Of a DNA stretch of 64,000 bases, positions 26,305-49,884 are shown piece by piece. The position numbers and the translations under genes are program-made. Origin of the DNA: an uncultured Planctomycetia bacterium (lineage in GTDB: Bacteria > Omnitrophota > Gorgyraeia > Duberdicusellales > 4484-171); assembly GCA_964536865.1 (NCBI GenBank), contig CAZHYN010000001.1, positions 97,824-161,823 of the forward strand. Direction: 5' to 3'. The number at the start of each line of letters is the position of its first letter. The stretch's first letter is position 1. The notes under the pieces are model-generated. The model did no database searches. It was not told where the DNA came from and saw only the letters and a program-made list of their open reading frames with translations.

Positions 26305-26484
26305 ATGATGAAAAAAATAGCATTTGTAAATCCCCACACTGTCCAGGAAATAGCCCAAGCCCTCAAATTACATCCTTACACCATTCGCAGACTTTGCCGG
26401 GAAGGTAAAATCCCAGCTTTTTCCGCCATACTTTATGACGGATCCGCCTCTGGCGAAAAGTTTGGCGGGAGAATGGAGATTTAG
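26305..26484 (+). CDS. excisionase-family (Xis/HTH_17-like) DNA-binding protein, 59 aa
   Basis: Below the ORF-track size cutoff. EIAQALKLHPYTIRRLCREGKIPAF is near-identical to ORF 32358..32585. Confidence 0.55.
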   Translation: MMKKIAFVNPHTVQEIAQALKLHPYTIRRLCREGKIPAFSAILYDGSASGEKFGGRMEI

Positions 26485-32385: not shown

Positions 32386-32585
32386 TGAGCAGGCAAGTTT
32401 TATCCGATATAATTAAAGAATTCTCTCCCACTGTAGAAGAAATAGCCCAAGCCCTTAAACTTCATCCTTACACCATTCGCAGGCTTTGCCGTGAAGGTGA
32501 AATCCCAGCTTTTTCCGCCATACTTTATGGCGGATCCGCCTCTGGCGAAAAATTTGGCGCTTCCGTTTTGATGTTAAGGAGATAG
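32358..32585 (+). CDS. excisionase-family (Xis/HTH_17-like) DNA-binding protein
   Basis: 75 aa. EIAQALKLHPYTIRRLCREGEIPAF; paralog of 26305..26484. Confidence 0.55.
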   Translation: MANCGREKIMSRQVLSDIIKEFSPTVEEIAQALKLHPYTIRRLCREGEIPAFSAILYGGSASGEKFGASVLMLRR

Positions 32586-32590
32586 AAGAA

Positions 32591-33307
32591 GTGGAAAAGA
32601 AATCAAGGCACTACAAAGTTTATGAGAAAGCAATAAAGAACTGGCCTGAAGATGAACGTCCCAGAGAGAAGCTTTTTAAATTAGGAGAACACAAACTTTC
32701 CAATACTGAACTTTTAGCTATCTTACTCCGTAGTGGTATAAAAGGAGAAAGTGCAATTGACTTGGCAAGGAGAATCATTCAAAAATTCAAAACCTTCAGG
32801 AATATGAGTCATACCAATTTAAATGATTGGAAAGAATTTAAAGGTTTAGGTCAGGCAAAAATAGCCCAGATTAAAGCAGCAATTGAAATAGGAAGAAGAT
32901 TTAGAGAAGAGGAAATAAAAGAAAAACCTCCTCAGATAAAATCCTCCTGTGATGTTGTAGAAATTATGATGCCAAGAATGAGAGACTTAAAGAAAGAAGT
33001 ATTTAAAATACTCCTTCTAAATTCCAAAAACAGGATTCTTGATATTGTAGAAATAACTCAGGGCACAGTAAACCAGGCAAACCCCATAATAAGAGAAATA
33101 TTTGAAAAATCTTTACAATCCTATGCTTCATCCATCATCTGCGTCCACAACCATCCTTCCGGAGATCCTAAACCCAGCAAAGAAGACGAAGAATTCACTA
33201 AAAGCTTAACTAAAGCAGGAGAAATTCTAAACATAAAAGTATTGGACCATATCATAATAGGAGATAATAAATATTACAGTTTTGCTGATGAGGGAAAAAT
33301 AAGGTGA
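32591..33307 (+). CDS. radC: RadC-like JAB/MPN domain protein (copy 2)
   Basis: Near-identical to 29980..30693 after the first ~10 codons. HNHPSGDP motif. Confidence 0.8.
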   Translation: MEKKSRHYKVYEKAIKNWPEDERPREKLFKLGEHKLSNTELLAILLRSGIKGESAIDLARRIIQKFKTFRNMSHTNLNDWKEFKGLGQAKIAQIKAAIEIGRRFREEEIKEKPPQIKSSCDVVEIMMPRMRDLKKEVFKILLLNSKNRILDIVEITQGTVNQANPIIREIFEKSLQSYASSIICVHNHPSGDPKPSKEDEEFTKSLTKAGEILNIKVLDHIIIGDNKYYSFADEGKIR

Positions 33308-35435: not shown

Positions 35436-35443
35436 TCAATGAC

Positions 35444-36976
35444 ATGCAAACTAATACTTTAAAAGAAATAATCAATAAATGGAGAGGTAAAGAAGGAGAA
35501 CGTATTGAATATAAACTCTCTGCTTCTACTTTATCAAAAGACATATGGGAAACCGTATCTGCTTTTTCAAACGAAGGCGGCGGTGTAATTCTACTTGGGT
35601 ATAAAAAAATCGGTAAGAAATATGTTCCCGTAGGAGTTAAAGATCCCTCAAAAATTCTTGATGATTTTACTTCTACTGTTAGTCAAAAATTCAATTTTTG
35701 TCCTGTTGTCTCTGCAAAGATTGTTGAAGACAGTGGTAAACCCACAATAGTTATAGAAGTAAAAGAAGCTCCACGGTATCAAAAGCCCATTTATATAAAA
35801 GATGCAGGTCCTCTTAAAGGAGGATTTAAAAGGGTTGGTGCTACAGACATTAGGCTTACAGACGAGGATGTGTATAGATATTATCTGGAAAGAATGGGAG
35901 CTCCTGATGCTCAACCAATAAATGGAACTACATTAGATGATATTGATCCTGCTACTCTTACAGCGTTTCGGAACTTAAGGAGAATTATAAATCCCAATGC
36001 TCCGGAATTAAGGTTTGATGATAAAGAACTTCTAAAGGCATACAACTTACTATCCAAAGACTCCGAAACATTAACAACTGCGGGCTTACTTCTTTTTGGA
36101 AGAGAAGAGATAGTGAAAAGACATTTTCCAGCGGTTCGGCTTGATGTCATAAGGGTAAAAGGTATCGAATGGGGCAAAGACAGAGACCCCTTTCTCTCCA
36201 GAGATTTAACAGGAAATCTCATAACTCTGCGTTCATTAGCGATAGATTTTCTGGATAGGTTCTTCCTTGTTCCTTTCCATACGGATAAAAGAGGTGAGAG
36301 GATAGAAGAAAATGCTCATCGCAAAGCCCTGAGAGAAGCACTTACCAATCTTTTAATGCACCAGAACTATTTTCACCGCAGTCCTGCACAGATAAGAATT
36401 TATAACGATAGGATTGAATTTTATAACCCTGGCTATTCTTTGAAGGATCCATCTTTATTTGATTCTCCTGGTTCTGAGTTAAGGAATCCTTCAATTGCGG
36501 CGGTTTTTTATGATATTGGTTGGGCAGAGGCGAAAGGGACAGGGCTTAAAACCACTATTGAATCACTTAAGAGTGAGGGTTACCCTATCCCTGAGTATTT
36601 AAATGACATCAAACATGACACTTTTACTTTGGTGCTTCCCCATCCAATAGTAGAAGTCACCGAACAAGTCACCGAACAAGTCACCGAACAAGTTGCGAAC
36701 ATGATGGACCGGAGGGCTATGACTCTGGAATTCTGTAAGGAGCCGAGGTCTTTAAAAGAAATAATGCAGTTTCTTGGGCTTAAACACCGACCCAATTTTA
36801 TAGAAAAGGTGTTGAATCCTCTTCTTGAAGCAGGGTTGTTAAAAAGAACGATCCCAGACAGGCCAAGAAGCAGGTTTCAAAAATATGTGGCTGTGAAGAA
36901 GGAGGCACATTATGGCAAAAAACAAGCACGATCAAATAGCAGAGAGGTTGGCAAAGAAGTTTGGGGTGGAGTATAA
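35444..36976 (+). CDS. AlbA_2 + HATPase_c_4 + wHTH protein, embedded in the RM operon
   Basis: AlbA_2-like N-terminus (IEYKLS...VSAFSNEGGGVILLGY) and HATPase_c_4-like (REALTNLLMHQNYF). In-frame 3x VTEQ repeat. Starts 9 nt after the hsdM stop. Confidence 0.7.
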   Translation: MQTNTLKEIINKWRGKEGERIEYKLSASTLSKDIWETVSAFSNEGGGVILLGYKKIGKKYVPVGVKDPSKILDDFTSTVSQKFNFCPVVSAKIVEDSGKPTIVIEVKEAPRYQKPIYIKDAGPLKGGFKRVGATDIRLTDEDVYRYYLERMGAPDAQPINGTTLDDIDPATLTAFRNLRRIINPNAPELRFDDKELLKAYNLLSKDSETLTTAGLLLFGREEIVKRHFPAVRLDVIRVKGIEWGKDRDPFLSRDLTGNLITLRSLAIDFLDRFFLVPFHTDKRGERIEENAHRKALREALTNLLMHQNYFHRSPAQIRIYNDRIEFYNPGYSLKDPSLFDSPGSELRNPSIAAVFYDIGWAEAKGTGLKTTIESLKSEGYPIPEYLNDIKHDTFTLVLPHPIVEVTEQVTEQVTEQVANMMDRRAMTLEFCKEPRSLKEIMQFLGLKHRPNFIEKVLNPLLEAGLLKRTIPDRPRSRFQKYVAVKKEAHYGKKQARSNSREVGKEVWGGV

Positions 36977-37208
36977 GAAAAGTAAAGGTATTGATATTGT
37001 AACCAAAGAGAAAGTTATCGAAGTTGAAACTAAGAAAGGTTCTTTATACCAAGGAATAAATCAGATAAAAAGAGCTTCTAAAGCAAGGTATGTTGCAGTT
37101 AATAAATTAAATATTAACAATGCTTTAAAGGCTACGAAAGGAACCGGTATAGGAATTATGGGACCTACTGGAAGGATAATAAAGAGAGCGAGAAGAAATA
37201 AGAAATAA
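36912..37208 (+). CDS. minimal PD-(D/E)XK fold protein (YraN/UPF0102-like) with basic tail
   Basis: 98 aa. GIDIVTKEKVIEVETKK fits the hhDhh...(D/E)hK pattern. Lys/Arg-rich C-terminus. Overlaps the upstream gene by 65 nt; the next gene starts 3 nt after its stop. Confidence 0.35.
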   Translation: MAKNKHDQIAERLAKKFGVEYKKSKGIDIVTKEKVIEVETKKGSLYQGINQIKRASKARYVAVNKLNINNALKATKGTGIGIMGPTGRIIKRARRNKK

Positions 37209-37210
37209 AA

Positions 37211-39031
37211 TTGCTGGGGCACATGTGGGAAGATAAAGTTTTAAAAGTTGCTTTTTCTATTCATTCAAATCCTGGCATATATGCATTGTTGTTGGGTTCT
37301 GGAACATCAAGAGAAGCAGGTATTCCTACAGGATGGGAAATAGTAGGAGATTTAATTAAAAAACTTGCCTTTGTTCAGACCAAAGAGTCATTATCAGATC
37401 CCTATAAATGGTATGAAGAAAAATTTGGAGAGAAACCAGATTATTCAAAAATTTTAGAAAAGTTAGCAAGTACTCCTATAGAGAGGCAGTCGCTTTTAAG
37501 AAGATATTTTGAGCCTACAGAGGAAGAAAAAGAACAAAGAATTAAAATCCCTACAGATACTCATAGGAGTATAGCTAAATTAGTTAAATATGGATATGTG
37601 AAGGTTATTGTCACTACTAATTTTGATCGTTTATTAGAGAAAGCCTTAGGAGAAAAAGGAATAACACCAGTTGTTATCAGTACCGATGATGAATTAGAAG
37701 GAGCTATTCCTTATGTTCATTCCAATTGCACTTTGATAAAAGTTAATGGAGATTATTTAGATACACGTTTAAGAAATACGATGGGTGAATTGGAAACCTA
37801 TTCAGAGAAATTGACTTCATTGCTCGAAGAAATTTTTGAAAGATTTGGATTAATTGTGTGTGGATGGTCGGCGAAATGGGATATTGCTTTAAGAGATACC
37901 ATTTTAAGAATAAAAAATAGAAGATTCCCTATGTATTGGCTTTCTAAAGAAGAGGTTACAGAGGAAGCGAAAAGGGTTATTTCACATAGGCAGGCAGATG
38001 TTATAAATATCGAAAGTGCCGATAAGTTTTTTGTTGAACTTTTAGAGAAGATCGAATCTTTACGAGAGTTCGAAAGCCCACATCCTTTATCTTACAAAGA
38101 GGCTGCTATAACTGTTAAACGTTATTTGTCAGATGAAAAGAAAAATAGGATTAAGCTTTATGAGCTTATCGATGAAGAAACAGAAAAAGTATGGAAAATT
38201 TTAGCTTCAGAATATTTTAATATTCAAAAGTTAAAACTTGAACGTAGTTTGATTCAGAAAAGAATACATGAGTATGAAGAATTGGTAAAACCCCTTATGA
38301 ATATGCTAATGCCCATTGCTTATTTTAGCAAGGAAGAAGATAATATGCGCTTGATTTCCAGAGCAATAGAACGAATCGCGCAACCGCATCAGCGAGCTGG
38401 CGTTGTAGCATTGATACAATTTCAACATTACCCTGCTTTACTTTTGCTATATGCAGCTGGTCTTGTAAGTTTAGCTAATGAAAATTGGAAGGTTTTAAAA
38501 GCAGCTTTATTGGAACCACAATATCAAGCTGATAATGAGAAACAACCAATTTTAGAATATATCGAGCCATATTATATTTTAAGAAGATTAGGATTTAATA
38601 ATAATGCAAAAAATAGAATTCTATCTGAAAATGACTATTTATTTTTTCTATTATCTGATTTTGTTAACGAATATATACCTGACAAAAATAAATATGAAGA
38701 AATATTTGATATTTTTGAATTTTTAATGGCAGTAACTTATGTTTATCAAGTAGTTTTTGTCTATGGGAGTGAAGAAGATAAGAAAACATTTAAAGAATCT
38801 GAGTATTTACCTACTAAGTTGATTGTTGGACGATTTGCACGGAAATACTTTAGTTGGCATCCCTCTAGAGATTTTGAAAAGTCTCCAATTGCTAGATTTA
38901 TAAACGAGGGGATAAAACAAGGTAATGAATGGGGGTTATTGAAAGAAGGATTCTTCGGAGGCTTTATAGAAACGTTTAAATTGTGCTGTAAAAAATATAT
39001 AAACACCTTGAGAAAGGTAAGAATCTCTTAA
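37211..39031 (+). CDS. SIR2-like (SIR2_2) domain protein with ~350-aa C-terminal domain of unknown function
   Basis: N-terminal SIR2-family motifs (LLGSGTSREAGIPTGWEIV, VTTNFDRLLE, HSNCTLIKVNGDY). No recognisable C-terminal domain. Confidence 0.7.
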   Translation: MLGHMWEDKVLKVAFSIHSNPGIYALLLGSGTSREAGIPTGWEIVGDLIKKLAFVQTKESLSDPYKWYEEKFGEKPDYSKILEKLASTPIERQSLLRRYFEPTEEEKEQRIKIPTDTHRSIAKLVKYGYVKVIVTTNFDRLLEKALGEKGITPVVISTDDELEGAIPYVHSNCTLIKVNGDYLDTRLRNTMGELETYSEKLTSLLEEIFERFGLIVCGWSAKWDIALRDTILRIKNRRFPMYWLSKEEVTEEAKRVISHRQADVINIESADKFFVELLEKIESLREFESPHPLSYKEAAITVKRYLSDEKKNRIKLYELIDEETEKVWKILASEYFNIQKLKLERSLIQKRIHEYEELVKPLMNMLMPIAYFSKEEDNMRLISRAIERIAQPHQRAGVVALIQFQHYPALLLLYAAGLVSLANENWKVLKAALLEPQYQADNEKQPILEYIEPYYILRRLGFNNNAKNRILSENDYLFFLLSDFVNEYIPDKNKYEEIFDIFEFLMAVTYVYQVVFVYGSEEDKKTFKESEYLPTKLIVGRFARKYFSWHPSRDFEKSPIARFINEGIKQGNEWGLLKEGFFGGFIETFKLCCKKYINTLRKVRIS

Positions 39032-39034
39032 GTT

Positions 39035-40354
39035 ATGGGAGAAGAATTTAAACAAACAGAGATTGGTAAGATACCGAAGGAGTGGGAGGTGGTGAGGTTG
39101 GGGGAGGTGGTATCAGTATTGAGAAATGGGCTAACTACTAAGCAAAATAAAGAAAAGATAGGTTATCCAGTTACCAGAATTGAGACGATTTCGGACGAGA
39201 CAATTGATCAAAGTAAGTTTGGGTATCTAACAAGAGTAAGCGAAAAAGAAATCAAAGAGTATGGGTTGGTTAAAGACGACATATTGTTCAGCCACATAAA
39301 TAGCTTAGCGCACATAGGAAAGACAGCAATCTACAGAGGAATTCCTAGAACTCTGTTGCATGGGATGAATCTGTTACTCCTGCGACCAAATAAGCAGAAA
39401 GTTAATCCGGTGTTTTTCCTGATGCTATTAAGATTTCTCAGAATGAAGAAGATTTTTGCAAACATGTCTAAAAAAGCTGTAAATCAAGCCTCGATCAATC
39501 AAACAGAACTTAAGAAACTAAAACTACCCCTCCCTCCACTTCCAGAACAACAAAAAATCGCTGAGATTCTTTCAACTATGGATGAAGCTATTGAAAAAGT
39601 AGATTCTGCCATAGCAAGAACCGAACGGCTCAAAAAGGGCTTGATGCAGGAACTTCTGAATGGGAGTCTGAGAGTCGGAGAGTCAATGAGTCTAAGAGTC
39701 AGAGAGTTAGGAGAGTTTAAGGATACAGAAATCGGCAGGATACCGAAGGAGTGGGAGGTTGTGAGGTTAAAGGAAGTAGTAGATTTGCTTAGAAATGGTT
39801 TAGTTACAAAGCAAAACAAGGATGAAAAAGGTATACCTGTAACACGCATAGAAACGATTTCAGACGAGAGAATTGATACGCAAAAAATTGGCTATATTGA
39901 GAAAATATCAGAAGAGGAAATTTCAGAGTACAAACTTCAAAAAGGAGATATACTTTTCAGCCATATCAATAGTCTTGCACATATAGGAAAAACAGCAATA
40001 TATGATGGCGAACCTTCCTTATTGCTACACGGAATGAACCTGCTCCTTTTGAGACCACAGAGAACAACCATTGAGCCTTTTTACCTTTTATATTTATTAA
40101 AGTATTACAGAGCCAAGGCAATTTTCAGACACATGTCGAAAAAGGCAGTTAATCAAGCATCGATTAACCAGACAGAATTAGGTAGGCTTAGAATTCCATT
40201 TCCCCCTCTCCCAGAACAACAAAAAATTGCTGAAATCCTGTCAACTGTTGATAAAAGGCTGGAGCTATTGAGAGAGAAAAAAGAAAAATTGGAAAGAATA
40301 AAGAAAGGATTAATGAATGACCTGCTAACAGGGAAAAAGAGAGTAGTGTTATGA
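39035..40354 (+). CDS. hsdS: type I RM specificity subunit with two target-recognition domains
   Basis: Internally duplicated halves (EFKQTEIGKIPKEWEVVRLGEV vs EFKDTEIGRIPKEWEVVRLKEV). Conserved repeats LPPLPEQQKIAEILST present twice. Confidence 0.85.
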   Translation: MGEEFKQTEIGKIPKEWEVVRLGEVVSVLRNGLTTKQNKEKIGYPVTRIETISDETIDQSKFGYLTRVSEKEIKEYGLVKDDILFSHINSLAHIGKTAIYRGIPRTLLHGMNLLLLRPNKQKVNPVFFLMLLRFLRMKKIFANMSKKAVNQASINQTELKKLKLPLPPLPEQQKIAEILSTMDEAIEKVDSAIARTERLKKGLMQELLNGSLRVGESMSLRVRELGEFKDTEIGRIPKEWEVVRLKEVVDLLRNGLVTKQNKDEKGIPVTRIETISDERIDTQKIGYIEKISEEEISEYKLQKGDILFSHINSLAHIGKTAIYDGEPSLLLHGMNLLLLRPQRTTIEPFYLLYLLKYYRAKAIFRHMSKKAVNQASINQTELGRLRIPFPPLPEQQKIAEILSTVDKRLELLREKKEKLERIKKGLMNDLLTGKKRVVL

Positions 40355-40733
40355 GTAGACGGCATACAGTAAACAGTAGACAGGGAAAGGCAGAGAGATT
40401 TGAGCAGTTAGAAGTATGGAAAAAGGCACATGAGTTGGTTCTTAAAATAACAAAATTACAAAAGATTTTCCTTCAGAGGAAAAATTTGGATTAGTTTCAC
40501 AAATGCGACGTGCTGCTGTATCAATCCCTGCTAATATCGCTGAGGGATTTAAAAAGTATGGCTTAAAAGATAAGAGGAACTTTTATAACATAGCACAAGG
40601 CTCTCTTGAGGAATTAAGATACTATTTAATTTTATCAAAGGAACTTGGATATTGTGAAAATACAGATGAATTTTATAAAGCAATAGATACAATTGGGAAA
40701 ATGTTATATGGCCTTATTAAAAGTATACAGTAG
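40351..40733 (+). pseudogene. four-helix-bundle (23S rRNA IVS family) protein gene, frameshifted
   Basis: ATG overlaps the hsdS stop (ATGA). Frame A encodes MSRR...FEQLEVWKKAHELVLKITK. Frame C continues ITKDFPSEEKFGLVSQMRRAAVSIPANIAEG... Shift occurs in the A-rich tract near 40465. Confidence 0.55.
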
Positions 40734-40835
40734 GCAGTCTACAGCAAACAGGGAATTCGTTGTCAAACAATCTCCCTGCAGTCTACTGTCTACCGTCTAC
40801 TGTCTACTGTTTACAAACTCAAAGGAGCACCAAAG

Positions 40836-43800
40836 ATGGCCTTTGATGAAAAACGCCTTGTAGAAGACTATATTATTAAACAACTTGAAGAGAAAGGATG
40901 GAGGTTTGTCCCTGCTAATGCCCTTGAAAGGGACAGCTATGAAGAACCTTTACTTATTCCAAATCTCAGAAGGGCGTTGGAAAGGATAAATAAAGAATCT
41001 GGTATTGGGGATGAGGAAATAAACAAGGCTTTAAATGAACTTAAACTTACCGGTACAGGTATAGAGGGAGCTAAACGCATTCTTAACTTCTATAAGTTTG
41101 GTATTCCAGTGAAGTTTGAGAAAGAGAAAGTGGTAAAGTATATCCAGCTTTTTGATTTTCAAGACATTGAAAACAACGAATTCATAGTTTCAAGGCAGGT
41201 TTATTTTTATGGTAGGGAAGCCATAAGAACGGACATTATACTCTATGTAAACGGTATTCCTCTGGTAAATATCGAGTGTAAAAACCCGACAAGTTTGACT
41301 GAAAGCTGGCATACCGCTTACAGGCAGATTAAGGATTATGAAAGGCTTGTACCCGAGCTTTATAAATATATTCAGATAGGAATAGGAGCTGAGAGTATTG
41401 CAAGATATTTCCCCATCGTTCCTTGGCAAGATGAACCTGTGATACACGAATGGCGTGATGAAAAGAAGGATTCAATTGACTCTACGGTTGAGATGCTATC
41501 AAGAAATATCTTGCTTGATATTATTAAAAACTACCTCTTTTATAGAGAATGGAGAGGGGAAGCAACTAAGGTCATAACCAGATATATGCAGTATAGAGCT
41601 GCTAATAAGATGGTAGATAGGGTCATCAAAAATCTCAAAGGGGAGGAGAAGAAAAATAAAGGCCTTGTATGGCATTGGCAGGGAAGCGGAAAGACTCTTA
41701 CCATGCTCTTTGCTGCCAACAAACTTTATTACGCAAAGGAACTCGAGAATCCCACGATATTTTTTATTGTCGATAGGATTGAGCTCGAAGACCAGCTTTA
41801 CAAGGAATTCTATTCTTTAGATATTGTCAAACCGGAGATTATAGGTTCAGTGGATGAACTCAAGGGAATTCTTCAATTTGATGATTATCGGGGTAAGCGA
41901 GGAGTATTTATAACACTCATTCATAAATTCAGGCCTGAGGAACTTAAAGAACTTTATAAAGAACTCGATGAAGTCACAAGATATAAGGAAACAATTATGA
42001 ACAGAAAAAATGTTATAGCCTTCATTGATGAGGGTCATAGAACCCAATATGGGCTGTTGGCTGCTCAAATGAAGAGTATTCTTAAAAGTGCTTTTTTCTT
42101 TGCCCTTACTGGAACACCTATATCAAAAAAGGGTAGAGATACCTACCTGGAATTTAGCTATCCACCAGACGAGGTTTATCTTGATAGGTATTTCATAACA
42201 GATTCCATAAGAGATGGCTTTACAGTAAAGATTGCCTATCAGCCAAGGCTTGAGAAAGAAGTCCATCTGAGGAAAGATTTACTTAAAGCATTTTTAGAGG
42301 CAGAAGAGGAAGAACTGCCTGAGGAGATAAGAGATGATATAAAAGGCAGAATTAAAAAGAGGTTGAATGCTATAAAGGTAGTGCTTGAAAATCCACAGCG
42401 TATAAAGGTAATAGCAGAGGATATAGCAAAACATTTTAAGGAGCATATTGACGGGAAGTTTAAAGCCATGGTGGTAGCAGGTAGTAGAAAGGCCTGCCAT
42501 ATCTATAAACAAGAACTTGATAGACACCTGCCACCAGAATATTCAGAGATAGTGATGACATATAGAAGAGACGATGAACAGCCCCTTGTGAAGAGGATTG
42601 CAGAGACACGAGAAAGATATGGAAATAGAGATATATCTGATATAAGAAAGGATATAGTAGAGAAGTTTAAAGAAGAAGCATTCCCTAAAATACTTATTGT
42701 CACTGATATGCTTCTTACAGGATTTGATGCTCCTATTTTGCAAGTTATGTATCTTGATAAACTACTTAAAGAACATAGACTTCTCCAAGCAGTGGCGAGG
42801 ACGAATAGACCATATAAAGATTTAAAAGAAGGAGGCCTTATAATTGATTATGTAGGAATACTCAAGGAATTTAGGAAAGCCCTTGAGATGTATAATGAAG
42901 AGGATATTAGACTGGCACTTACAAGCTTCGACGGGATCAGGGAAGAATTTGCCTTACTCCTCAGAGAGATTCTTGAAATACTTAAAGAAGTATCCAGAAA
43001 TTATGAGAGGGAAGTACTCCTTAAAGCTTGTGAAATACTCACCACTGAGAAGACAAAAGAAAAGGAATTCATTGAGAAATATAAAAGTTTAAGAAAGGCC
43101 TTTGAGCTCCTTGGTCCTGACGAAATTAAACTTGAATATTTCGAAGATTATAAATGGATTTCAGCGATTTATACATACTACATGAGAACAGTACTACAGA
43201 AACCACCTGTTGAAGAATATGTAGAGAGGTATTACGAGAAAACTGTAAGATTCATACATAAGGCTACAGAGATAAAAAAGTTGGAAACAGACCTGCCAAT
43301 AGTAGCTTTTGACGAAGGATACCTTAAGGCGCTTGAGGAGAGGGTTAAAAGCAGGAAGGAGAAAGCTGCTAACATTCTTTTTACACTAAATAGATTAGTT
43401 CTCGTTGAAAGACACAGAAACCCTATTTATGAGTCTCTCGTAGAAAAAGTTGAAAGACTGCTTGAGCTCTGGAAGGAGAAAACAAAGGATTATGAAAGGA
43501 TATACAGAGAAGGTGTAATAGCAATCAATGAAATAAAGTCTCTTTCTGAAAGACAAAAATCATTGGGCTTTTCTGACCTTGAATATTCGCTACTGCTTGC
43601 TCTTGAAGAAAAATTTGGTAAAGAGGAAGAATTGGTAAGTGAGGTAAGAGATATATCAGAAAGGCTTAAAAACTATATGTTTCCTGGTTGGTTTAATCAG
43701 CCTACCGTAGAAAAAAATGTAGAAAGAGAAGTAAGGAGATTTGTTAGGGGATTTAAGGGAAAGTATAGCATGACTTTGGAAGAAATGGACCAACTTTATA

Positions 43801-43841
43801 AGAAACTTATTGAAAGAGTAAAGAACTATGGGACTTCATAA
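40836..43841 (+). CDS. hsdR: type I RM restriction subunit (helicase/endonuclease)
   Basis: 1001 aa. N-terminal PD-(D/E)XK region, SF2 helicase motifs (HWQGSGKT, FIDEGHRTQYG, TGTP). Confidence 0.9.
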   Translation: MAFDEKRLVEDYIIKQLEEKGWRFVPANALERDSYEEPLLIPNLRRALERINKESGIGDEEINKALNELKLTGTGIEGAKRILNFYKFGIPVKFEKEKVVKYIQLFDFQDIENNEFIVSRQVYFYGREAIRTDIILYVNGIPLVNIECKNPTSLTESWHTAYRQIKDYERLVPELYKYIQIGIGAESIARYFPIVPWQDEPVIHEWRDEKKDSIDSTVEMLSRNILLDIIKNYLFYREWRGEATKVITRYMQYRAANKMVDRVIKNLKGEEKKNKGLVWHWQGSGKTLTMLFAANKLYYAKELENPTIFFIVDRIELEDQLYKEFYSLDIVKPEIIGSVDELKGILQFDDYRGKRGVFITLIHKFRPEELKELYKELDEVTRYKETIMNRKNVIAFIDEGHRTQYGLLAAQMKSILKSAFFFALTGTPISKKGRDTYLEFSYPPDEVYLDRYFITDSIRDGFTVKIAYQPRLEKEVHLRKDLLKAFLEAEEEELPEEIRDDIKGRIKKRLNAIKVVLENPQRIKVIAEDIAKHFKEHIDGKFKAMVVAGSRKACHIYKQELDRHLPPEYSEIVMTYRRDDEQPLVKRIAETRERYGNRDISDIRKDIVEKFKEEAFPKILIVTDMLLTGFDAPILQVMYLDKLLKEHRLLQAVARTNRPYKDLKEGGLIIDYVGILKEFRKALEMYNEEDIRLALTSFDGIREEFALLLREILEILKEVSRNYEREVLLKACEILTTEKTKEKEFIEKYKSLRKAFELLGPDEIKLEYFEDYKWISAIYTYYMRTVLQKPPVEEYVERYYEKTVRFIHKATEIKKLETDLPIVAFDEGYLKALEERVKSRKEKAANILFTLNRLVLVERHRNPIYESLVEKVERLLELWKEKTKDYERIYREGVIAINEIKSLSERQKSLGFSDLEYSLLLALEEKFGKEEELVSEVRDISERLKNYMFPGWFNQPTVEKNVEREVRRFVRGFKGKYSMTLEEMDQLYKKLIERVKNYGTS

Positions 43842-44376
43842 TATCCCATATATAGTTTCCTATAGAGCTGTGAAGTATCCAAGATTAGAGTTTAAAACAG
43901 GAAAGCTTCTTATTGTTCTTCCTTTTGGAGCTAAGCCTGATATTCTTTTGGATAAGCATAAACATTGGATTATTAAGAAATCTGAATTTATAAAAAGATG
44001 CTTACAAAGTGCAAAGAATAAAAAATTAATCACAAGATCCGATGAAAAATTTAGGAAACTTATCGATTATTTTGTGAGAAAAACATCTAAAGATTTAAAT
44101 GTTAAATTGAATCGCATCTATTTTAGAAAAATGAAGACAAAATGGGCATCCTTGAGTTCTGCGAAAAATCTAACAATTAACTCACTTGTGAAACATTTGC
44201 CAGAGTATTTGATAAGATATGTGATTTTCCATGAACTGGTTCATATCATAGAGAAAAGACATAATGAGAAATTCTGGGAGATAGTCTCACACAGGTTTAA
44301 AAATTATCGAAAAATGGAAAGAGAAATGTTCATATATTGGTTTCTGGTTTCTAAAAAAGGAGGAGATCATGGCTGA
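43828..44376 (+). CDS. DUF45/YgjP-like zinc metallopeptidase (M48-like, WLM fold)
   Basis: HExxH...E motif (VIFHELVHIIEKRHNEKFWE). Gene family commonly found downstream of hsdR. Confidence 0.65.
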   Translation: MGLHNIPYIVSYRAVKYPRLEFKTGKLLIVLPFGAKPDILLDKHKHWIIKKSEFIKRCLQSAKNKKLITRSDEKFRKLIDYFVRKTSKDLNVKLNRIYFRKMKTKWASLSSAKNLTINSLVKHLPEYLIRYVIFHELVHIIEKRHNEKFWEIVSHRFKNYRKMEREMFIYWFLVSKKGGDHG

Positions 44377-44659
44377 ATTCACAGTTAGTGAAGTAATTGA
44401 TGGTGATACTTTTAAAGTTAAGGAAGGTTGGAAATGGAATGAAAGGAAGGGCGATACTGTTCGTCCTACAGGTTATGATGCTCCTGAGAAAGGAGAGCCG
44501 GGATATGAAGAAGCAAAAGAGAAACTTAGAAGGCTAATTTTGAATGAAAAAGTAAAAATTGAAAATCCTCAAACCATAGATGACTGGGGCAGATTAGTGG
44601 CAGATGTTTATTATAAAGGGAAAAATCTTGCTGACTACTTTCCTGAATATAAAGTTTGA
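44369..44659 (+). CDS. thermonuclease (SNase-like) small nuclease
   Basis: VIDGDTFKV...TVRPTGYDAPEKGE matches the staphylococcal-nuclease fold signature. Confidence 0.6.
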   Translation: MAEFTVSEVIDGDTFKVKEGWKWNERKGDTVRPTGYDAPEKGEPGYEEAKEKLRRLILNEKVKIENPQTIDDWGRLVADVYYKGKNLADYFPEYKV

Positions 44660-44926
44660 TAAGTTTTCTTTTCGTCCTGAGTTTTCTTGAGATACAGGCG
44701 GTGAGGATACGTCTTTTAAATATTTTGTTATACCCTTAAAATCTTTAAAATATTGGAATATTTAATCACTTCCCATTTTCTCCCCCCACACCTCCTCAAA
44801 CTCTCCTGAACCACGTAGGGTCTTAAGGGGATGCCCTATGTTCTTTTTTATCCACTTCCTCATTTTTCCTCATCCCAATACAAGCCTTCCTGACCGACAC
44901 CCTTCTCAAAATTTGACATTTTTCTC

Positions 44927-45543
44927 ATTCTCAAATTCTTAAGAATATTAGAATAATTTCTGCCTCCACATTGGAATAGTTTCTGTCTCCATTTTATTTT
45001 TAGTCTTTCCCTTTACCATTCTCAAATTCTTAAGAACGTTGGAATAATCCCCAATCTTCATACCTACTTTCTCATTCTCAAATTCTTAAGAATATTGGAA
45101 TATTTTAATGAATGTGATATAATTTAAGAAGATGAAAAGCTCGCAAAAGAAGAATAAAAATTATCGTAAGTTAGAAAGGATTGTTAAAGGATTTGCAAAT
45201 CATCGCAGAATTCAAATCTTAGAGCTTTTAGAGAAAAATCCAGAGTTGTCAGTTATTGAAATTACTCAAGAATTGAATATGAATTTTAAGACTGCTTCTG
45301 AACACATAAGAAGGCTTGCTATCTCAGGTTTAATTATGAAAAGGTCTGATGGCAAAAGTATTCGTCACAAGCTTACAGAGAGAGGTCTAAAAGTTCTCAA
45401 ATTCTTAAGAACATTGGAATAGAAACCTTCAATTTTTTATATCCTTTTCTTTATTCTCAAATTCTTAAGAATATTAGAATAGCTCCTCTAATTTACTTTT
45501 TCAGTTTTCTTATCATTCTCAAATTCTTAAGAACATTGGAATG
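44927..45543. repeat. six dispersed copies of a ~29-bp iteron-like repeat with CTTAAG-centred palindrome
   Basis: ATTCTCAAATTCTTAAGAA(T/C)(A/G)TT(G/A)GAATA at 44927, 45018, 45074, 45394 (overlaps the wHTH stop), 45453 and 45515. Irregular spacing 91/56/320/59/62. Partial half-site near 44752. Confidence 0.8.
45132..45422 (+). CDS. small winged-helix (ArsR/MarR-like) DNA-binding protein flanked by the iterons
   Basis: 96 aa with HTH (RIQILELLEKNPELSVIEITQELNMNFKTASEHIRRL). Last codons are encoded by repeat copy 4. Confidence 0.6.
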   Translation: MKSSQKKNKNYRKLERIVKGFANHRRIQILELLEKNPELSVIEITQELNMNFKTASEHIRRLAISGLIMKRSDGKSIRHKLTERGLKVLKFLRTLE

Positions 45544-45666
45544 ATAAAGATATCTTACTTTTGCTCTCCACACACCCTGCCACCGATTTGTCTATATCTT
45601 TTAAAACTTTATAAATATTTACACTACATTTTTAACTTTATGGTATAATGTAGTGTAAGGAGGGTT

Positions 45667-45975
45667 TTGATGAAAGTATTAAGAAATATTTTAGAAGAAA
45701 GTAAAGAGTATTACCTTAAAGTTAAAAAGAAGATAGAGAGAAAAATTAAAAATTTACCTAAGGGTAGCGTTAAAGAAAGAAGGATTTGTGGTAAAAAGTA
45801 CTATTATCTTCAATATCGAGAAGGTAAAAAAGTAATTCATAAATATTTAGGTAAAAATAAACCCGAAAACCTCATAAGACAGATTAAGGAAAGGAAGGTA
45901 TTATTAAATGAGATGAAGAAAGTAAACGAGGCTATTGAGTTAATTAACAGGACAGAGAAGAGAAAAAGGAGATGA
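45667..45975 (+). CDS. hypothetical basic protein, first gene of a two-gene cassette
   Basis: 102 aa. Promoter TATAAT at 45644 is flanked by a perfect 11-bp inverted repeat TTACACTACAT/ATGTAGTGTAA. Confidence 0.3.
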   Translation: MMKVLRNILEESKEYYLKVKKKIERKIKNLPKGSVKERRICGKKYYYLQYREGKKVIHKYLGKNKPENLIRQIKERKVLLNEMKKVNEAIELINRTEKRKRR

Positions 45976-46322
45976 TTGAATCGGTTAGAAAGATTTTAAA
46001 GACATTCTATGAAAATAACCTTTTTGAAGAAGGAGTAGAACTTATAGGAAGCTGGTGCTTTCAATTTTATGTAAAGCATTTAGGTGCCAAGCCTTTTCCT
46101 CTAAGAACTCAGGATATTGATTTTTTAATTCCTTACCCTTTTAAAGGGGAAGACCATAAAGATTTAATAGAGCAATTAGAGAAATTAGGTTTTAAGAAAG
46201 ATTTTACTATAGAAGGACATTTATTTTTATGGAACCAAGATTTAAAAATAGAATTTTTGGTTTCCCAGAAGAATAAAGAATTAAAAGACTTCAGCAAGCA
46301 ATATGCACATTTTCTATTGTAG
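45972..46322 (+). CDS. putative nucleotidyltransferase-like protein (GS...DxD)
   Basis: GSWCFQFYVKHLGAKPFPLRTQDIDFLIP weakly resembles Pol-beta-fold nucleotidyltransferase/Abi toxin motifs. Overlaps the upstream gene by 4 nt. Confidence 0.3.
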   Translation: MIESVRKILKTFYENNLFEEGVELIGSWCFQFYVKHLGAKPFPLRTQDIDFLIPYPFKGEDHKDLIEQLEKLGFKKDFTIEGHLFLWNQDLKIEFLVSQKNKELKDFSKQYAHFLL

Positions 46323-46493
46323 AGAAAAAATATTTACAGAAATTATTGAATTCTTTACCCAAAAGATGGAGAAGAGCAATTTTTAATCTACTTAAGAAAG
46401 CTAAAGAAGAATTTCCTTTATATAAAGAAGATATAGAGAGTTTTCTTCTTACACTACAAGATATTAAAATTAAGAAATTGTAGTGTAATTAGG

Positions 46494-46796
46494 TTAATAT
46501 TTCATCTCCTCCCACACTCTCTCAAACTCCCTATACGCTGATTTATCCACTTCCTTATTCTTGTTATACTCAAAAACCAACTCTCCTGTATCCACCAAAG
46601 GTGGATCCGCCTCTGGCGGATAATGCTCATAAATCAAAATTTCATCATTTTCTTTCACAATGTCCACCGTAACAGTGTTAGGTTTAACAACCTGTTTTTC
46701 TTTGCCAATAGAGTACCCTAACAATAATCCAACAACCAAATACATCCCCAAAATAAAATATGCCTCAATCCTCCTATAAGTAACACTACCTGACAT
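46494..46796 (-). CDS. small membrane-anchored hypothetical protein
   Basis: 100 aa with one hydrophobic helix. Contains the GGATCCGCCTCTGGCGG junction motif on the opposite strand. Confidence 0.3.
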   Translation of the reverse strand: MSGSVTYRRIEAYFILGMYLVVGLLLGYSIGKEKQVVKPNTVTVDIVKENDEILIYEHYPPEADPPLVDTGELVFEYNKNKEVDKSAYREFERVWEEMKY

Positions 46797-46860
46797 GGTT
46801 TATTACTCCTTTCTTAACTCATTGATATATAAAGAAGATAGAACCATCCCCACCAGGTTC

Positions 46861-47055
46861 TCATAATTTTTGCGCCCCACTGGCAGAGATTACCCCCTTT
46901 CTTATAGTCCTTTCAGTAATAAACGTCTCTTTTTCATATTTTAAGATGTAGTTCTGTTCTTCCTTAGGCAGTTTTAGAAGGTTTAAAAACTGAGTTATTC
47001 TTACCCTGGATACTCCCAGTCTTTTAGCCAATTCAGTCTGAGTAAGCTTCTCTTT
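46861..47055 (-). pseudogene. ParB/Spo0J-like HTH fragment (start-less remnant)
   Basis: Minus-strand frame encodes LTQTELAKRLGVSRVRITQFLNLLKLPKEEQ, the classic ParB HTH-region signature. Upstream part is in a different frame. Confidence 0.4.
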
Positions 47056-47485
47056 TTAAGCGATTTCAGGTATTCTTTAGCCCTAACTATAGGATTTATA
47101 TAAGGATTTAATTATAGTGTCTTATCTCTTTCTTTGTAACTATCTTGTTTTTGGGGATAAAAGAAGGTTTTGCCCATATAAAGAGTCTTTATTTTATTAC
47201 AATATCGCCAGTGGCAGGCAACCTTTTCGTATATAGATTTAAGGATTTTTGTTCGCTGAGAGTATTGCACGGGGAGGAAGTTATTTTTCATAGAAAATTT
47301 ATTTTGAGCAGCAATGGAGTTTTTGCCAGTTTTTGTGGTCTATCTTTCAATAGGTTATACGATAATTTCTAATTATACAATATATGGCCGTTTAAATTTC
47401 TTGACACCCAACATATAGGGTTTATAATATTTACTAATTAAGTTCTTTAAATTGATCTTTGTATATTTTTCTTCTGGTGCCTTAA

Positions 47486-47700
47486 AGGCTTAATAGGGAA
47501 CTTCGTGAAAATCGGAGGCTGTCCCGCAGCTGTAATGGGGGACGAAAGGCGCTATTTTCCGAGGTTATGTCGGGATGAAGTGCCACTACCCCGACGTTAA
47601 GTCGGGATGGGAAGGCGCGCCAAGTAGATTGATCCCAGAGCCAGAAGACCTGCCAGAAGAAAGGTGAAGTAGAATTATCGTAGAATGATTCTACTTTTGA
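47486..47700 (+). ncRNA. cobalamin (B12) riboswitch
   Basis: AATAGGGAA, GTGAAAATCGG, CTGTCCCGCAGCTGTAA, GCCACTA...GGGAAGGCG and B12 box GCCAGAAGACCTGCC (47643..47657). Confidence 0.75.
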
Positions 47701-47723
47701 GAGACGAAGTAAATCAGGGTGCA

Positions 47724-47766
47724 GTCCCGCCTCTTTCATTTTGAAAGGAGCGGGATTTTTTATTTT
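47724..47766 (+). terminator. riboswitch expression-platform terminator hairpin
   Basis: TCCCGC-ctctttcattttgaaaggag-GCGGGA followed by TTTTTTATTTT. RBS GAAAGGAGG and ATG lie downstream. Confidence 0.6.
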
Positions 47767-47781
47767 GAAAGGAGGTTAAGT

Positions 47782-49884
47782 ATGGAGAGGGTATTTACGA
47801 AAATAACAAAAAGAGACGGAAGAATAGAAGATTTCAATTCCTCTAAGATAACTCAAGCTATAGCTAAAGCTGGAATTGCTACAGGTGAATTTGACAAAGA
47901 GATTGCAAAAAAACTTACTCTTAAGGTTTTGAATTTAGCTTCGCAAATTATTAAAGACCGCACTCCTTTAGTTGAGGAGATCCAAGATATAGTGGAAGAA
48001 ATTTTATTATCATCCCCTTATAAAAAAACAGCTAAAGCCTACATAATTTATAGAGACCAACATGCAAAACTAAGAGAGCTAAGTAATAAATTTAATTTAA
48101 ATTTAGTTGAGCAGTATTTAAATAAGGAAGATTGGCAAGTAAGAGAAAATAGCAATATGAGTTTTTCCCTTCAGGGGCTAAATAATTATATTTCATCTGA
48201 AATAAGTAAAATTTACTGGCTTAATAAGATTTATCCTCTCAAGATCAGAGAAGCACATCTAAATGGAGATTTTCATATTCATGATCTAGGATTATTAAGT
48301 GTTTATTGTGTAGGATGGGATTTGCAGGATCTATTACTTGAGGGATTTAAGGGAGCTTCTGGTAAAATAGAGTCAAAACCTGCAAAGCATTTTAGATCTG
48401 CTTTAGGTCAGATTGTAAATTTTTTCTATACTCTTCAAGGTGAAGCTGCAGGAGCTCAGGCTTTCTCTAATTTCGATACACTACTTTCTCCTTTTATAAG
48501 GTACGATGGTCTAAGTTATAAAGAAGTAAAACAAGCTCTGCAAGAGTTTTTATTCAACTTAAATGTCCCTACCCGAGTAGGTTTTCAGACTCCTTTTACC
48601 AATATTACTTTGGATCTGGTCGTTCCTTTTCATCTTGCAAATCAAGCAGTAATAATTGGAGGAAGCCCTCAAAACAATACTTATAAAGATTTCCAGAAAG
48701 AGATGGAGATATTTAATAAGGCATTTTTAGAAGTTATGCTTGAGGGAGATGCTAAAGGAAGAGTATTTACTTTTCCTATTCCTACCTACAACATCAGCAA
48801 AGATTTCGATTGGGATAATCCCAATCTTTCATTATTGTGGGAGTTAGCTGGAAAATATGGAGTTCCTTACTTTGCTAACTTTATCAATTCTAGTATGAGG
48901 CCTGAAGACGCAAGGAGTATGTGTTGTAGATTAAGAATCGATAATCGCCAGCTTAGGAAAAGAGGAGGGGGGTTATTTGGAGCCTCTCCTCTTACTGGTT
49001 CTATAGGTGTAGTTACGATAAATATGGTAAGGTTAGGGTTTCTGTCTAGAGATGAAGATGAGTTTTTTGAAAGATTAGATAATTTGATGCTTCTTGTAAA
49101 GGAGAGTCTGGAAATAAAAAGAAAAGTTCTTGAAAGATTTACTGAGAATAGTTTGTATCCTTATATGAAGTTTTATTTAAGAAATGTAAAGGAAAGGTTT
49201 AATGAGTATTGGAAAAATCATTTTTCGACAATTGGTGTGATAGGCATGAACGAAGCATGTCTTAATCTATTTGGTGAAGGTATAGCTACGCCTCGGGGGA
49301 AAGATTTTACTTTAAGAGTTTTGGATTTTATGAGAGAAAAATTACTGGAGTTTCAGATGGATACAGGAAACAGTTACAATTTAGAAGCCACACCTGCAGA
49401 AGGAGCATCTTTTAGGTTAGCTAAATTGGATAAAGAGCAATATCCCCAGATTATTTGTGCTAATGAAGAGGATTTTAGAAAAGGTGCTTCTCCTTTTTAT
49501 ACAAATTCTACGCATCTTCCTGTAAATTATACAGATGATATCTTTGAAGTGCTCGAACATCAAGACGAGATCCAGGTCCGTTATACAGGAGGAACTGTTC
49601 TTCATATTTATCTAGGAGAGAGAATAAAAGAGCCAGGTGCTCTTAAAAAATTAATCAAAATTATTTGTTCAAATTACAAATTACCTTATTTTACCATTAC
49701 CCCTACTTTCAGTATCTGTCCTCAGTGTGGTTATATTCCCTACGAGACAGAGATATGTTCTAGATGTGGTAGTAGATGTGAAATTTATTCAAGAATAGTT
49801 GGATATTTAAGGCCAACATCTCAATGGAACCAGGGGAAGCAAGAGGAATTTAGAATACGAAAAACATTTAAGGTGAACGTATGA
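47782..49884 (+). CDS. nrdD: anaerobic ribonucleoside-triphosphate reductase (class III)
   Basis: N-terminal ATP-cone (RVFTKITKRDGRIEDF). C-terminal zinc ribbon CPQCGY...CSRCGSRC and glycyl-radical motif SRIVGYLRP. Start moved to the ATG at 47782 behind a strong RBS. Confidence 0.9.
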   Translation: MERVFTKITKRDGRIEDFNSSKITQAIAKAGIATGEFDKEIAKKLTLKVLNLASQIIKDRTPLVEEIQDIVEEILLSSPYKKTAKAYIIYRDQHAKLRELSNKFNLNLVEQYLNKEDWQVRENSNMSFSLQGLNNYISSEISKIYWLNKIYPLKIREAHLNGDFHIHDLGLLSVYCVGWDLQDLLLEGFKGASGKIESKPAKHFRSALGQIVNFFYTLQGEAAGAQAFSNFDTLLSPFIRYDGLSYKEVKQALQEFLFNLNVPTRVGFQTPFTNITLDLVVPFHLANQAVIIGGSPQNNTYKDFQKEMEIFNKAFLEVMLEGDAKGRVFTFPIPTYNISKDFDWDNPNLSLLWELAGKYGVPYFANFINSSMRPEDARSMCCRLRIDNRQLRKRGGGLFGASPLTGSIGVVTINMVRLGFLSRDEDEFFERLDNLMLLVKESLEIKRKVLERFTENSLYPYMKFYLRNVKERFNEYWKNHFSTIGVIGMNEACLNLFGEGIATPRGKDFTLRVLDFMREKLLEFQMDTGNSYNLEATPAEGASFRLAKLDKEQYPQIICANEEDFRKGASPFYTNSTHLPVNYTDDIFEVLEHQDEIQVRYTGGTVLHIYLGERIKEPGALKKLIKIICSNYKLPYFTITPTFSICPQCGYIPYETEICSRCGSRCEIYSRIVGYLRPTSQWNQGKQEEFRIRKTFKVNV

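Follow-up and report, generated by a model that had tools for sequence, protein, structure and literature searches.

A stretch of 64,000 nucleotides from an uncultured Omnitrophota bacterium (contig CAZHYN010000001.1, positions 97,824 to 161,823; below, the window, counted from its first letter) contains a small gene encoding a winged helix-turn-helix (wHTH) protein, with six copies of a 28-bp near-palindrome, ATTCTCAAATTCTTAAGAAYRTTRGAAT, lying around and within it. With a probability that we put at roughly 0.6, the repeat is the operator of the protein encoded among its copies, and the two represent a widespread regulator-site pair whose site has been amplified in this lineage. The locus is most likely a lineage-specific form of an ArsR/HlyU-like autoregulator with predicted operators on either side of its gene, one of them fused to the stop codon. 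Full-text literature searches retrieved no description of either the motif or the system, and the pair is apparently undescribed.

The six copies start at positions 44927, 45018, 45074, 45393, 45453 and 45515. All of them are on the plus strand in the same orientation, with at most one mismatch each. There were no matches in 100 dinucleotide-preserving shuffles (chance expectation 0), and no further copies were found elsewhere in the window. The upstream group consists of copy A (44927..44954, ATTCTCAAATTCTTAAGAATATTAGAAT), copy B (45018..45045) and copy C (45074..45101). Copy D (45393..45420), below called the END site, comprises the last nine codons of the wHTH gene (VLKFLRTLE) and the first base of its stop codon, and encodes residues of the C-terminal helix alpha5. 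It is followed by copy E (45453..45480), whose unit is absent from the related genome L007, and by copy F (45515..45542), the last unit, where homology to relatives with a different downstream cassette stops. A degenerate seventh copy can be read at 44732..44759 on the same strand, with about 23 of 30 positions retained if the flanks are included; it belongs to repeat-search family D1 (44726-44764, 67% to the reference copy). The preliminary description of this DNA had placed repeats upstream of, downstream of and over the stop codon of a 96-aa winged-helix gene, and this arrangement holds. Two details do not: the three upstream copies span 175 bp and not 160 bp, and the spacing, described as irregular, is in fact that of tandem units. 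With the gene set aside, each unit measures about 56-62 bp and is made of the 28-bp core and a linker of 27-34 bp, and the one longer unit, of 91 bp, owes its length to a 23-bp tandem duplication in the 63-bp linker 3' of copy A that includes a partial 3' half-site. The site is an inverted repeat that can be described as 13-2-13 or equally as 11-6-11. Single-stranded folding of the window copies is weak (-3.2 and -3.6 kcal/mol, z about 0). Since this is no better than in shuffled sequences, they act as duplex sites and not as hairpins.

The gene enclosed by the copies (45132..45422, plus strand) was characterized by Pfam, an AlphaFold2 model and the ratio of nonsynonymous to synonymous polymorphism (pN/pS). 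It encodes a 96-aa protein of the ArsR/SmtB fold that exceeds the Pfam cut-offs for HTH_24 (33.2 bits, cut-off 21.9), HTH_5 (ArsR; 31.5 bits, cut-off 22) and MarR. The model (pLDDT, the predicted local distance difference score, 81) has the ArsR/SmtB topology alpha1-alpha2-alpha3-alphaR-beta-beta-alpha5. The best PDB matches in a Foldseek search are SqrR, SmtB, CzrA, HlyU, NolR and AspA, with template modelling scores of 0.70-0.77 for the first four, and HlyU is the best sequence match in a phmmer search against PDB (E 8e-8). The protein contains no cysteines, and its helix alpha5 (RGLKVLKFLRTLE) has neither histidine nor aspartate ligands. None of the ligand sets used in metal or thiol sensing (CXC in alpha3, Asp/His/His/Glu in alpha5, a reactive cysteine pair) is present, and the protein is predicted to be a non-sensing or differently sensing member of ArsR/SmtB, like HlyU. 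The gene is under purifying selection (pN/pS of 0.08-0.29 in comparisons with relatives 93-97% identical), and thus it is not a vestige.

The candidate promoter of the gene (45095..45123, plus strand) consists of the -35 hexamer TTGGAA (45095-45100), a 17-nt spacer and the extended -10 box TGaTATAAT (45115-45123), with 10 of 12 matches in addition to the TG. The -35 hexamer lies in the right arm of copy C, the promoter-proximal predicted operator, and the same geometry is seen in relatives of the locus. The start codon (ATG at 45132) is 8 nt beyond the -10 box, and because it follows the box so closely the mRNA is predicted to be leaderless or nearly so. The promoter overlap is a property of the whole family: 17% of the upstream (UP) sites have a perfect TATAAT at a distance of 16-18 nt to the arm hexamer, compared with 0.07% of control positions, and a -10 box with at least five of six matches at this spacing occurs in 27% and 3%, respectively. 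The 13-2-13 symmetry fits the operators of ArsR/SmtB proteins, which bind as one or two dimers. An imperfect inverted repeat of the 12-2-12 type over the regulator's own promoter, as in ArsR/SmtB operators, is what the site geometry provides here, and binding of the protein to it is predicted.

Homologues of both the protein and the site were found far beyond the Omnitrophota. A search of a species-representative genome set with an exact 18-mer from the repeat, TTCTCAAATTCTTAAGAA, yielded more than 119 stretches, mostly from Patescibacteria of many classes; the other carriers were Omnitrophota, Planctomycetota, Caldisericota, Calescamantes and the actinomycetotal 'Ca. Geothermocultor'. Many of these dispersed sites are the perfect 28-bp palindrome ATTCTCAAATT-CTTAAG-AATTTGAGAAT. 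The protein family, compared at about 200 related loci, ranges over Patescibacteria, Omnitrophota, Actinomycetota-Aquicultoria, Planctomycetota and Caldisericota. The word index contains 1191 homologues, typically 67-80% identical across these phyla, and among 1.84 billion representatives the family forms 160 clusters at 50% identity (E <=1e-10). Two loci assigned to archaea also carry full sites, one of them 97% identical to the window across 65 bp. They are situated on contigs of 1.6 kb and 4.3 kb from metagenome-assembled genomes (MAGs), which may be binning errors, and no spread to archaea is claimed.

A homologue of the protein is encoded at 33 of 119 loci found by the motif. These loci nearly always have two flanking sites 280-400 bp apart, one 5' of the start codon and the other over the stop codon. 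In order to avoid selection on the motif, 80 metagenome loci were fetched by the protein alone (74 after dereplication). Both the UP and the END site are present at 70 of the 74 dereplicated loci, and the END site over the stop codon is kept in 68 of the 80. Thus the 'site - gene - site' bracket is the standard architecture of the family. The preliminary description had named, as the contrary case, a dispersed element that occurs without association with this regulator. The motif is indeed dispersed, as a single genome has at least eight site loci and several phyla together have more than 119, but it stays tightly linked to the regulator.

The overlap of the END site with the stop codon does not depend on one reading frame. 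In a subfamily of 44% identity the same palindrome covers the stop codon in a different frame (...FSNS*). In another lineage both sites have the centre CTGCAG instead of CTTAAG, which changes a leucine of the C-terminal helix to cysteine. Since the overlap occurs in a second frame and the altered centre forces an amino acid change, the conserved entity is the DNA site and not the peptide. In a further lineage the second site is positioned directly 3' of the stop codon. Every copy of the repeat can be read as ILKFLR(I/T)LE followed by a stop, and so the copies were considered as possible relics of wHTH 3' ends. This was rejected, because the palindromic consensus YATTC...GAATR by itself produces the stop-like triplets and because the subfamily just mentioned has the motif over the stop in another frame; tblastn of the regions upstream of solitary copies revealed no coding remnants of the wHTH gene.

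The recognition helix and the core of the site vary together. The helix FKTxSEHxRRL is paired with the core TTCTYRAGAA in the large majority of loci, FRTASDHI(K/R)KM with TTCCGCGGAA (4/4), GYENASDHxRKL with TTTTGCAAAA (3/3), and FKNVSSHISKM / MKNISAHINKM with TTCTATAGAA (2/2). Three more helix variants are paired with TTCTGCAGAA. Because changes in the helix track changes in the core, the wHTH protein is very probably the cognate binder of the site and its own autorepressor. The suggestion made at the outset that the repeats are bound by the adjacent small regulator agrees with this covariation, with the bracket at 70 of 74 loci and with the -35 hexamer inside the promoter-proximal copy.

In Patescibacteria the gene and its sites form a module with a fixed context among housekeeping genes. 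An identical protein was found on 9 independent contigs and another on 16, and neither context nor orientation ever changes. Both neighbours of the gene have the same orientation as the gene itself, and the distance from its stop codon to the start of the next open reading frame (ORF) has a median of 41 nt. Given this arrangement, a protein bound to the END site could be a roadblock to read-through. In contigs from one population of Patescibacteria (L209-L214) the gene is located between the genes for a small ATP-cone protein and RadC-GreA. RadC genes also occur twice in the genomic island that contains the window locus, which may be a coincidence.

From the above we infer the following mode of regulation. 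The protein bound to copy C (45074-45101) would occlude the -35 box and switch off its own, essentially leaderless transcript, which would be classical autorepression. Copy D, in the last nine codons and the stop codon, is a probable auxiliary operator that could act by forming a loop with the promoter site, some 300 bp distant, or by blocking read-through into the next gene. The 'site - gene - site' bracket is the ancestral design of the whole family. In the Omnitrophota lineage of the window, unequal recombination has multiplied the copy of the stop-codon type, which now forms tandem units of about 60 bp (3 + 1 + 2 copies upstream, over the stop codon and downstream). Here the protein may coat a tract of several hundred base pairs where a defence island adjoins an exchangeable toxin-antitoxin-like cassette.

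Close relatives of the locus are a MAG from Omnitrophota (L007, 92% identical to the window) and four metagenome contigs (L123, L124, L126, L127). The number of copies upstream, over the stop codon and downstream differs among sequences that are 92-99% identical: 5 + 1 + 1 in L126, 3 + 1 + 3 in L127, and 2 + 1 + 0 and 5 + 1 + 3 in the two modules of L123 (a and b, respectively). L007 has two copies and lacks the wHTH gene. Throughout the arrays the copies have the asymmetric form of the stop-codon site and a single orientation. The units align across all 60 bp, with a near-invariant core and with linkers that have diverged but occur in the same order in relatives. Full-length alignment of the units and homologous, syntenic linkers exclude the spacers of a CRISPR (clustered regularly interspaced short palindromic repeats) array and point to unequal recombination.

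The module is always 5' of a two-gene toxin-antitoxin-like cassette whose identity varies. Three cassettes were observed after the last repeat: DUF6788 with NTP_transf_8, DUF6036 with a 225-aa protein, and HTH_17 with Fic. Homology between relatives breaks off at the repeats. Because the cassettes differ and homology ends at the repeats, the array marks a hotspot of cassette exchange. In L123, the two wHTH modules (3883-4291 and 6214-6622) are 99.8% identical across 409 bp with ends at repeat copies and are separated by the DUF6036 cassette, which indicates a recent duplication or gene conversion. In L127, the HTH_17 and Fic pair (931-2000) replaces the 5' part of the DUF6788/nucleotidyltransferase cassette. 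A remnant of the nucleotidyltransferase 3' end (96% identical) is kept downstream, and a transposase of the IS110 family is located about 4 kb away.

Several observations weigh against the operator interpretation or make it incomplete. The protein scores 52.2 with the NCBIfam ArsR/SmtB model NF033788, just below the cut-off of 55. The operator interpretation does not account for the need for 6-9 copies in the lineage of the window. The two sites of a locus are more alike than expected: the right arm of the END site is identical to a UP arm at 28 of 70 loci (6.9 expected, at most 15 in 2000 permutations), and the central hexamers are the same or inverted at 49 of 70 (27.9 +/- 3.1 expected). This likeness partly reflects co-evolution with the protein. 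Since it includes positions such as synonymous third bases, it also suggests gene conversion or recombination between the sites. Further, some 75 sites are solitary and have unrelated housekeeping genes as neighbours, among them those for aminoacyl-tRNA synthetases, ATP synthase, LigA, MsrA, RelA and DinB. They do not define a coherent regulon, as the 68 genes flanking them match 71 Pfam families, none of which occurs in more than two proteins. Nor do they look like repressible promoters, as -10 boxes at promoter spacing are not enriched. Thus the picture of a plain repressor with a regulon is incomplete. Solitary sites are often found where two genes converge and where the intergenic gap is very short. 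Finally, those solitary sites that are perfect palindromes have complementary, covarying flanks extending 5-6 nt past the core and fold at -19.5 kcal/mol (z -8.6), which hints at a hairpin or cruciform aspect.

An alternative, which we regard as unlikely, is that the sites are the core sites of a site-specific recombinase, arranged as 11-6-11 like dif, lox or pdif. The recombinase would be encoded elsewhere, the modules would be excised, inverted or swapped, the solitary sites would be empty or solo sites, and the wHTH protein could be an accessory or architectural factor. The layout itself corresponds to that of Xer/dif/pdif sites: 28 bp, 11-bp arms and a 6-bp centre that varies by lineage and yet is common to both sites of a locus. 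The identity of upstream arms with the right arm of the END site is of the same kind, and an inversion between such sites would leave the ORF intact. The dispersal of a near-identical site through many phyla, the cassette with two repeats but no wHTH gene in L007, the twin modules of L123 that end at repeats and the three cassettes after the last repeat also fit. However, no integrase, Xer protein, resolvase or transposase occurs near the window locus or among the top 25 neighbour Pfam families listed (from 75 proteins of protein-chosen loci and 68 flanking proteins of motif-chosen loci). The site arms are presumably unlike the conserved XerD arm. The constant context and orientation of the identical proteins on 9 and 16 contigs do not suggest mobility, and an all-against-all comparison of 219 loci with two multi-contig look-ups found no inversion or excision polymorphism in Patescibacteria. 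In the main clade the centre varies only in the pyrimidine-purine step TA/TG/CA, which could be neutral. The breakpoints at the Omnitrophota repeats are compatible with such a mechanism but not specific to it, as homologous or unequal recombination at identical 28-bp repeats explains both the turnover and the breakpoints equally well.

One could combine the two interpretations. The bracket sites would then be both operators and 11-6-11 recombination cores, and the array coated by the wHTH protein would be a platform for cassette exchange similar to integrons or pdif modules. It would shuffle toxin-antitoxin and defence cassettes in Omnitrophota, and it would have spread a 330-bp 'site-gene-site' unit through genomes of ultra-small bacteria and left solo sites behind. 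This extension is speculative and we consider it improbable.

Another explanation of low probability treats the motif mainly as a dispersed structural palindrome, resembling REP (repetitive extragenic palindromic) sequences or hairpin terminators and acting as an RNA hairpin or DNA cruciform, with a secondary link to the wHTH gene, for instance as a terminator both for the gene upstream and for the wHTH gene. It would account well for the solitary sites, given their frequent position between convergent genes and in very short gaps, the strongly folding perfect palindromes with covarying complementary flanks, and the lack of both a coherent regulon and -10 boxes. On the other hand, asymmetry is seen in the window copies and in most stop-codon sites, whose folding does not exceed that of shuffled sequences, the sites are not followed by T-tracts on the 3' side, and the UP sites carry a -35 hexamer. 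No Rfam family matched at gathering or E-value thresholds. Exact conservation across phyla and covariation with the helix point to recognition by a protein. An association of the sites with transposases was not seen among the most frequent neighbour Pfam families listed.

The preliminary description itself had interpreted the repeats as part of a decayed maintenance module of a plasmid or integrative and conjugative element (ICE), either iterons or a partition centromere, bound by the wHTH protein, with a nearby ParB-type helix-turn-helix (HTH) fragment as a remnant of the same module. This interpretation, now very unlikely, has been largely refuted. The architecture does agree with that of a partition site, as tandem repeats with an inverted repeat beside the gene of a small DNA-binding protein recall sopC, parC and the AspA site of pNOB8, and AspA is among the structural matches of the protein. 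In addition, toxin-antitoxin-like cassettes and the ParB-type fragment are close by and the locus belongs to a variable island downstream of a tRNA-Gln gene. However, most members of the family have two sites only. No Rep, ParA, ParM, TubZ, relaxase or integrase is encoded within 10 kb on either side or in the scanned 21.4-33.3 kb part of the island, and no partition NTPase (ParA, ParM, TubZ) was found in the annotated 35-55 kb or in L123, L126 and L127. Iterons would be expected beside a rep gene and an AT-rich unwinding element on a plasmid or ICE backbone; here no Rep family is encoded within 10 kb, no plasmid relatives were found, and the source contig, recorded with 245,554 bp, carries nrdD, chemotaxis and efflux genes in the window. 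The proposed search of plasmids and phages yielded no close homologues among 72,556 PLSDB plasmids and 50,697 INPHARED phages, only generic ArsR proteins below 41% identity, and a single occurrence of the repeat 18-mer was found among 2.9 million viral contigs. Chromosomal housekeeping surroundings are the ancestral setting of the module, selection on the gene is purifying, and GC skew runs unbroken through the locus. The ParB-type fragment does exist (46861..47055, minus strand, 64 codons, PF17762, E 2.8e-8) and lacks the ParB N-terminal domain. It is an unrelated neighbouring relic and not part of the repeat system. At the syntenic position in relatives it is absent, and its orthology to an XRE gene found at this position in relatives was rejected.

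The possibility of a degenerate or mini-CRISPR array with a 28-bp repeat and spacers of about 32 bp is negligible and had already been dismissed in the preliminary description: although the repeat length, the gaps of 27-34 bp, the single orientation and a weak similarity of the protein to the wHTH domain of Csa3/CasR mimic such an array, it is refuted by linkers that are T/C-rich, mutually homologous and kept in order in relatives and hence not unique spacers, the wHTH gene itself takes the place of one 'spacer', the 35-55 kb annotation contains no Cas family, and the site is single or paired at about 200 other loci.

The predicted operator system can be compared with several known ones. The fold and size of the protein are those of HlyU, NolR, SqrR/BigR and SmtB/CzrA, which have 12-2-12 operators, and HlyU likewise lacks metal-ligand cysteines. 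As in ArsR/SmtB autoregulators, a long AT-rich imperfect inverted repeat with TTC/GAA blocks covers the regulator's own promoter. Unlike in HlyU-type systems, a second predicted operator is fixed in the region of the gene's own stop codon and conserved there in two different frames; evolution of the two sites is concerted; unrelated genes have solitary sites next to them; one lineage has a 60-bp tandem amplification; and no efflux, detoxification or virulence target is adjacent. HlyU has been reported to act on a cruciform-forming palindrome (PMC10325908).

An operator at the promoter and a second site a few hundred base pairs downstream in the coding sequence are also found in lac (O1/O2), gal (OE/OI) and deo. 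The sites of the wHTH family are separated by about 290-390 bp, lac O1 and O2 by 401 bp. The auxiliary site here differs in being positioned in the regulator's own gene, over the stop codon.

Small dimeric binders encoded beside site-bearing tandem repeats are known from the centromere systems SopB/sopC, ParR/parC, omega of pSM19035 and AspA of pNOB8; AspA is an ArsR-like wHTH protein, and omega also heads a toxin-antitoxin pair. The system described here differs from them in the lack of a partition NTPase, the chromosomal location, the 28-bp palindrome in 60-bp units and the two sites of most members. The pdif modules of Acinetobacter plasmids, often with toxin-antitoxin genes, likewise have 28-bp sites (XerC-6-XerD, 11-6-11) bracketing tiny modules, and the toxin-antitoxin-like neighbour cassettes and the breakpoints at sites between relatives strengthen this likeness. 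The differences are that no sign of Xer involvement was seen, that no recombination polymorphism was observed, that the sites covary with the enclosed protein and that the array copies are co-oriented. Finally, in ParB/parS and RTP/Ter a palindromic site is also reused along the chromosome regardless of gene function, with a copy in or by the gene of the binder, but the fold is not that of ParB and there is no switch of GC skew at the locus. A replication terminus or fork trap of the RTP/Ter type at this locus is not supported, as the whole window has positive GC skew and constant gene orientation.

The cassette that follows the array in the window has a repeat of its own. A perfect 11-bp inverted repeat, TTACACTACAT-N18-ATGTAGTGTAA (45619..45658, plus strand, repeat-search family I2), encloses the extended -10 box TGgTATAAT (45641-45649, with TATAAT at 45644-45649) of the cassette, exactly as had been noticed before, and is probably the cassette's own operator. 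The first gene of this toxin-antitoxin-like pair encodes a 101-aa DUF6788 protein (45670..45975, plus strand, PF20586). The second had been proposed to encode a nucleotidyltransferase-like toxin. The family assignment stands (NTP_transf_8; 45972..46483, plus strand), but the gene is a pseudogene with residues 1-109 and 166-232 in two different frames. In comparison with the intact 232-aa copy of L007 it has suffered a deletion of about 187 bp and a frameshift. The same 116-aa truncation of NTP_transf_8 is present in L123 and L126, and so the lesion is older than these strains. A second copy of the inverted repeat, TTACACTACA...TGTAGTGTAA (46449..46488, plus strand, repeat-search families I2 and I23), covers the stop codon of the cassette. 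Thus the DUF6788/NTP_transf_8 cassette is bracketed by its own TTACACTACA...TGTAGTGTAA repeat, with a promoter copy and a stop-codon copy, which is the same design as that of the wHTH gene with a different sequence.

Downstream of the cassette is a 100-aa ORF with an N-terminal hydrophobic segment and without a family match (46494..46796, minus strand). Short DNA matches to its 3' end occur at 44779-44867 (D4, D6), and no protein-level match was found that would identify the region 44779-44900 as its relic. The ORF contains one of four copies of a GC-rich hairpin motif, GGATC(C/T)GCCTCTGGCRRA (about 25210, 26439-26458, 32531-32550 and 46602-46621). Two of the other copies are within a repeat of about 65 bp just 5' of a Fic gene (26589) and of the second RadC gene (32591).

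The locus is part of an island at 23.7-47 kb, annotated in the stretches 21.4-33.3 kb and 35-55 kb, that contains toxin-antitoxin and defence genes. Upstream of the array is a type I restriction-modification operon with SIR2 and other inserts, followed by genes for a YgjP peptidase and a small SNase-like protein. The operon (33648-44659) has the order hsdM ... hsdS ... hsdR. The extra genes between hsdM and hsdS encode a 510-aa protein with weak similarity to the PNTD proteins associated with prokaryotic Argonautes (pAgo) and a SIR2 protein of 606 aa with a match to PADLOC candidate system PDC-S65 (E 3e-194). Between hsdS and hsdR is a 23S-rRNA-IVP gene, and the YgjP and SNase-like genes come after hsdR. 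The two RadC-like JAB genes (29980-30693 and 32591-33307) have near-identical Pfam scores and flank genes for a 464-aa unknown protein and an HTH_17 protein; the pair looks like a duplicated module within the island. Perfect 12-nt tandem repeats of 3.3 copies each occur in the 464-aa ORF (32168-32207, AGAAAACTGTGG) and in the 510-aa ORF (36654-36693, AAGTCACCGAAC). The window also carries chemotaxis and efflux genes as well as the anaerobic ribonucleotide reductase gene nrdD (47719-49884) with its activase, directly preceded by a cobalamin riboswitch (47458-47671, 107 bits).

To our knowledge, Patescibacteria (the candidate phyla radiation, CPR) and Omnitrophota have very few transcription factors, almost none of them with a known site. 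The protein-site pair described here is directly testable and is conserved across many uncultured lineages, with 160 protein clusters and hundreds of loci. Its design is unusual, as an operator appears to be written in the codons of the regulator's C-terminal helix and stop, in two frames, and to co-evolve with the promoter operator. If the predicted binding is true, the pair would offer an initial entry point to the study of regulation in these organisms, or of roadblocks bound to their chromosomes. It would also supply a natural series of matched helices and operators for studies of winged-helix specificity, a compact orthogonal set of repressors and operators for synthetic biology, and a marker for hotspots of exchange of toxin-antitoxin and defence cassettes. 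And should recombination be the cause of the concerted evolution of the two sites, the bracket would represent a new kind of small mobile or exchangeable module.

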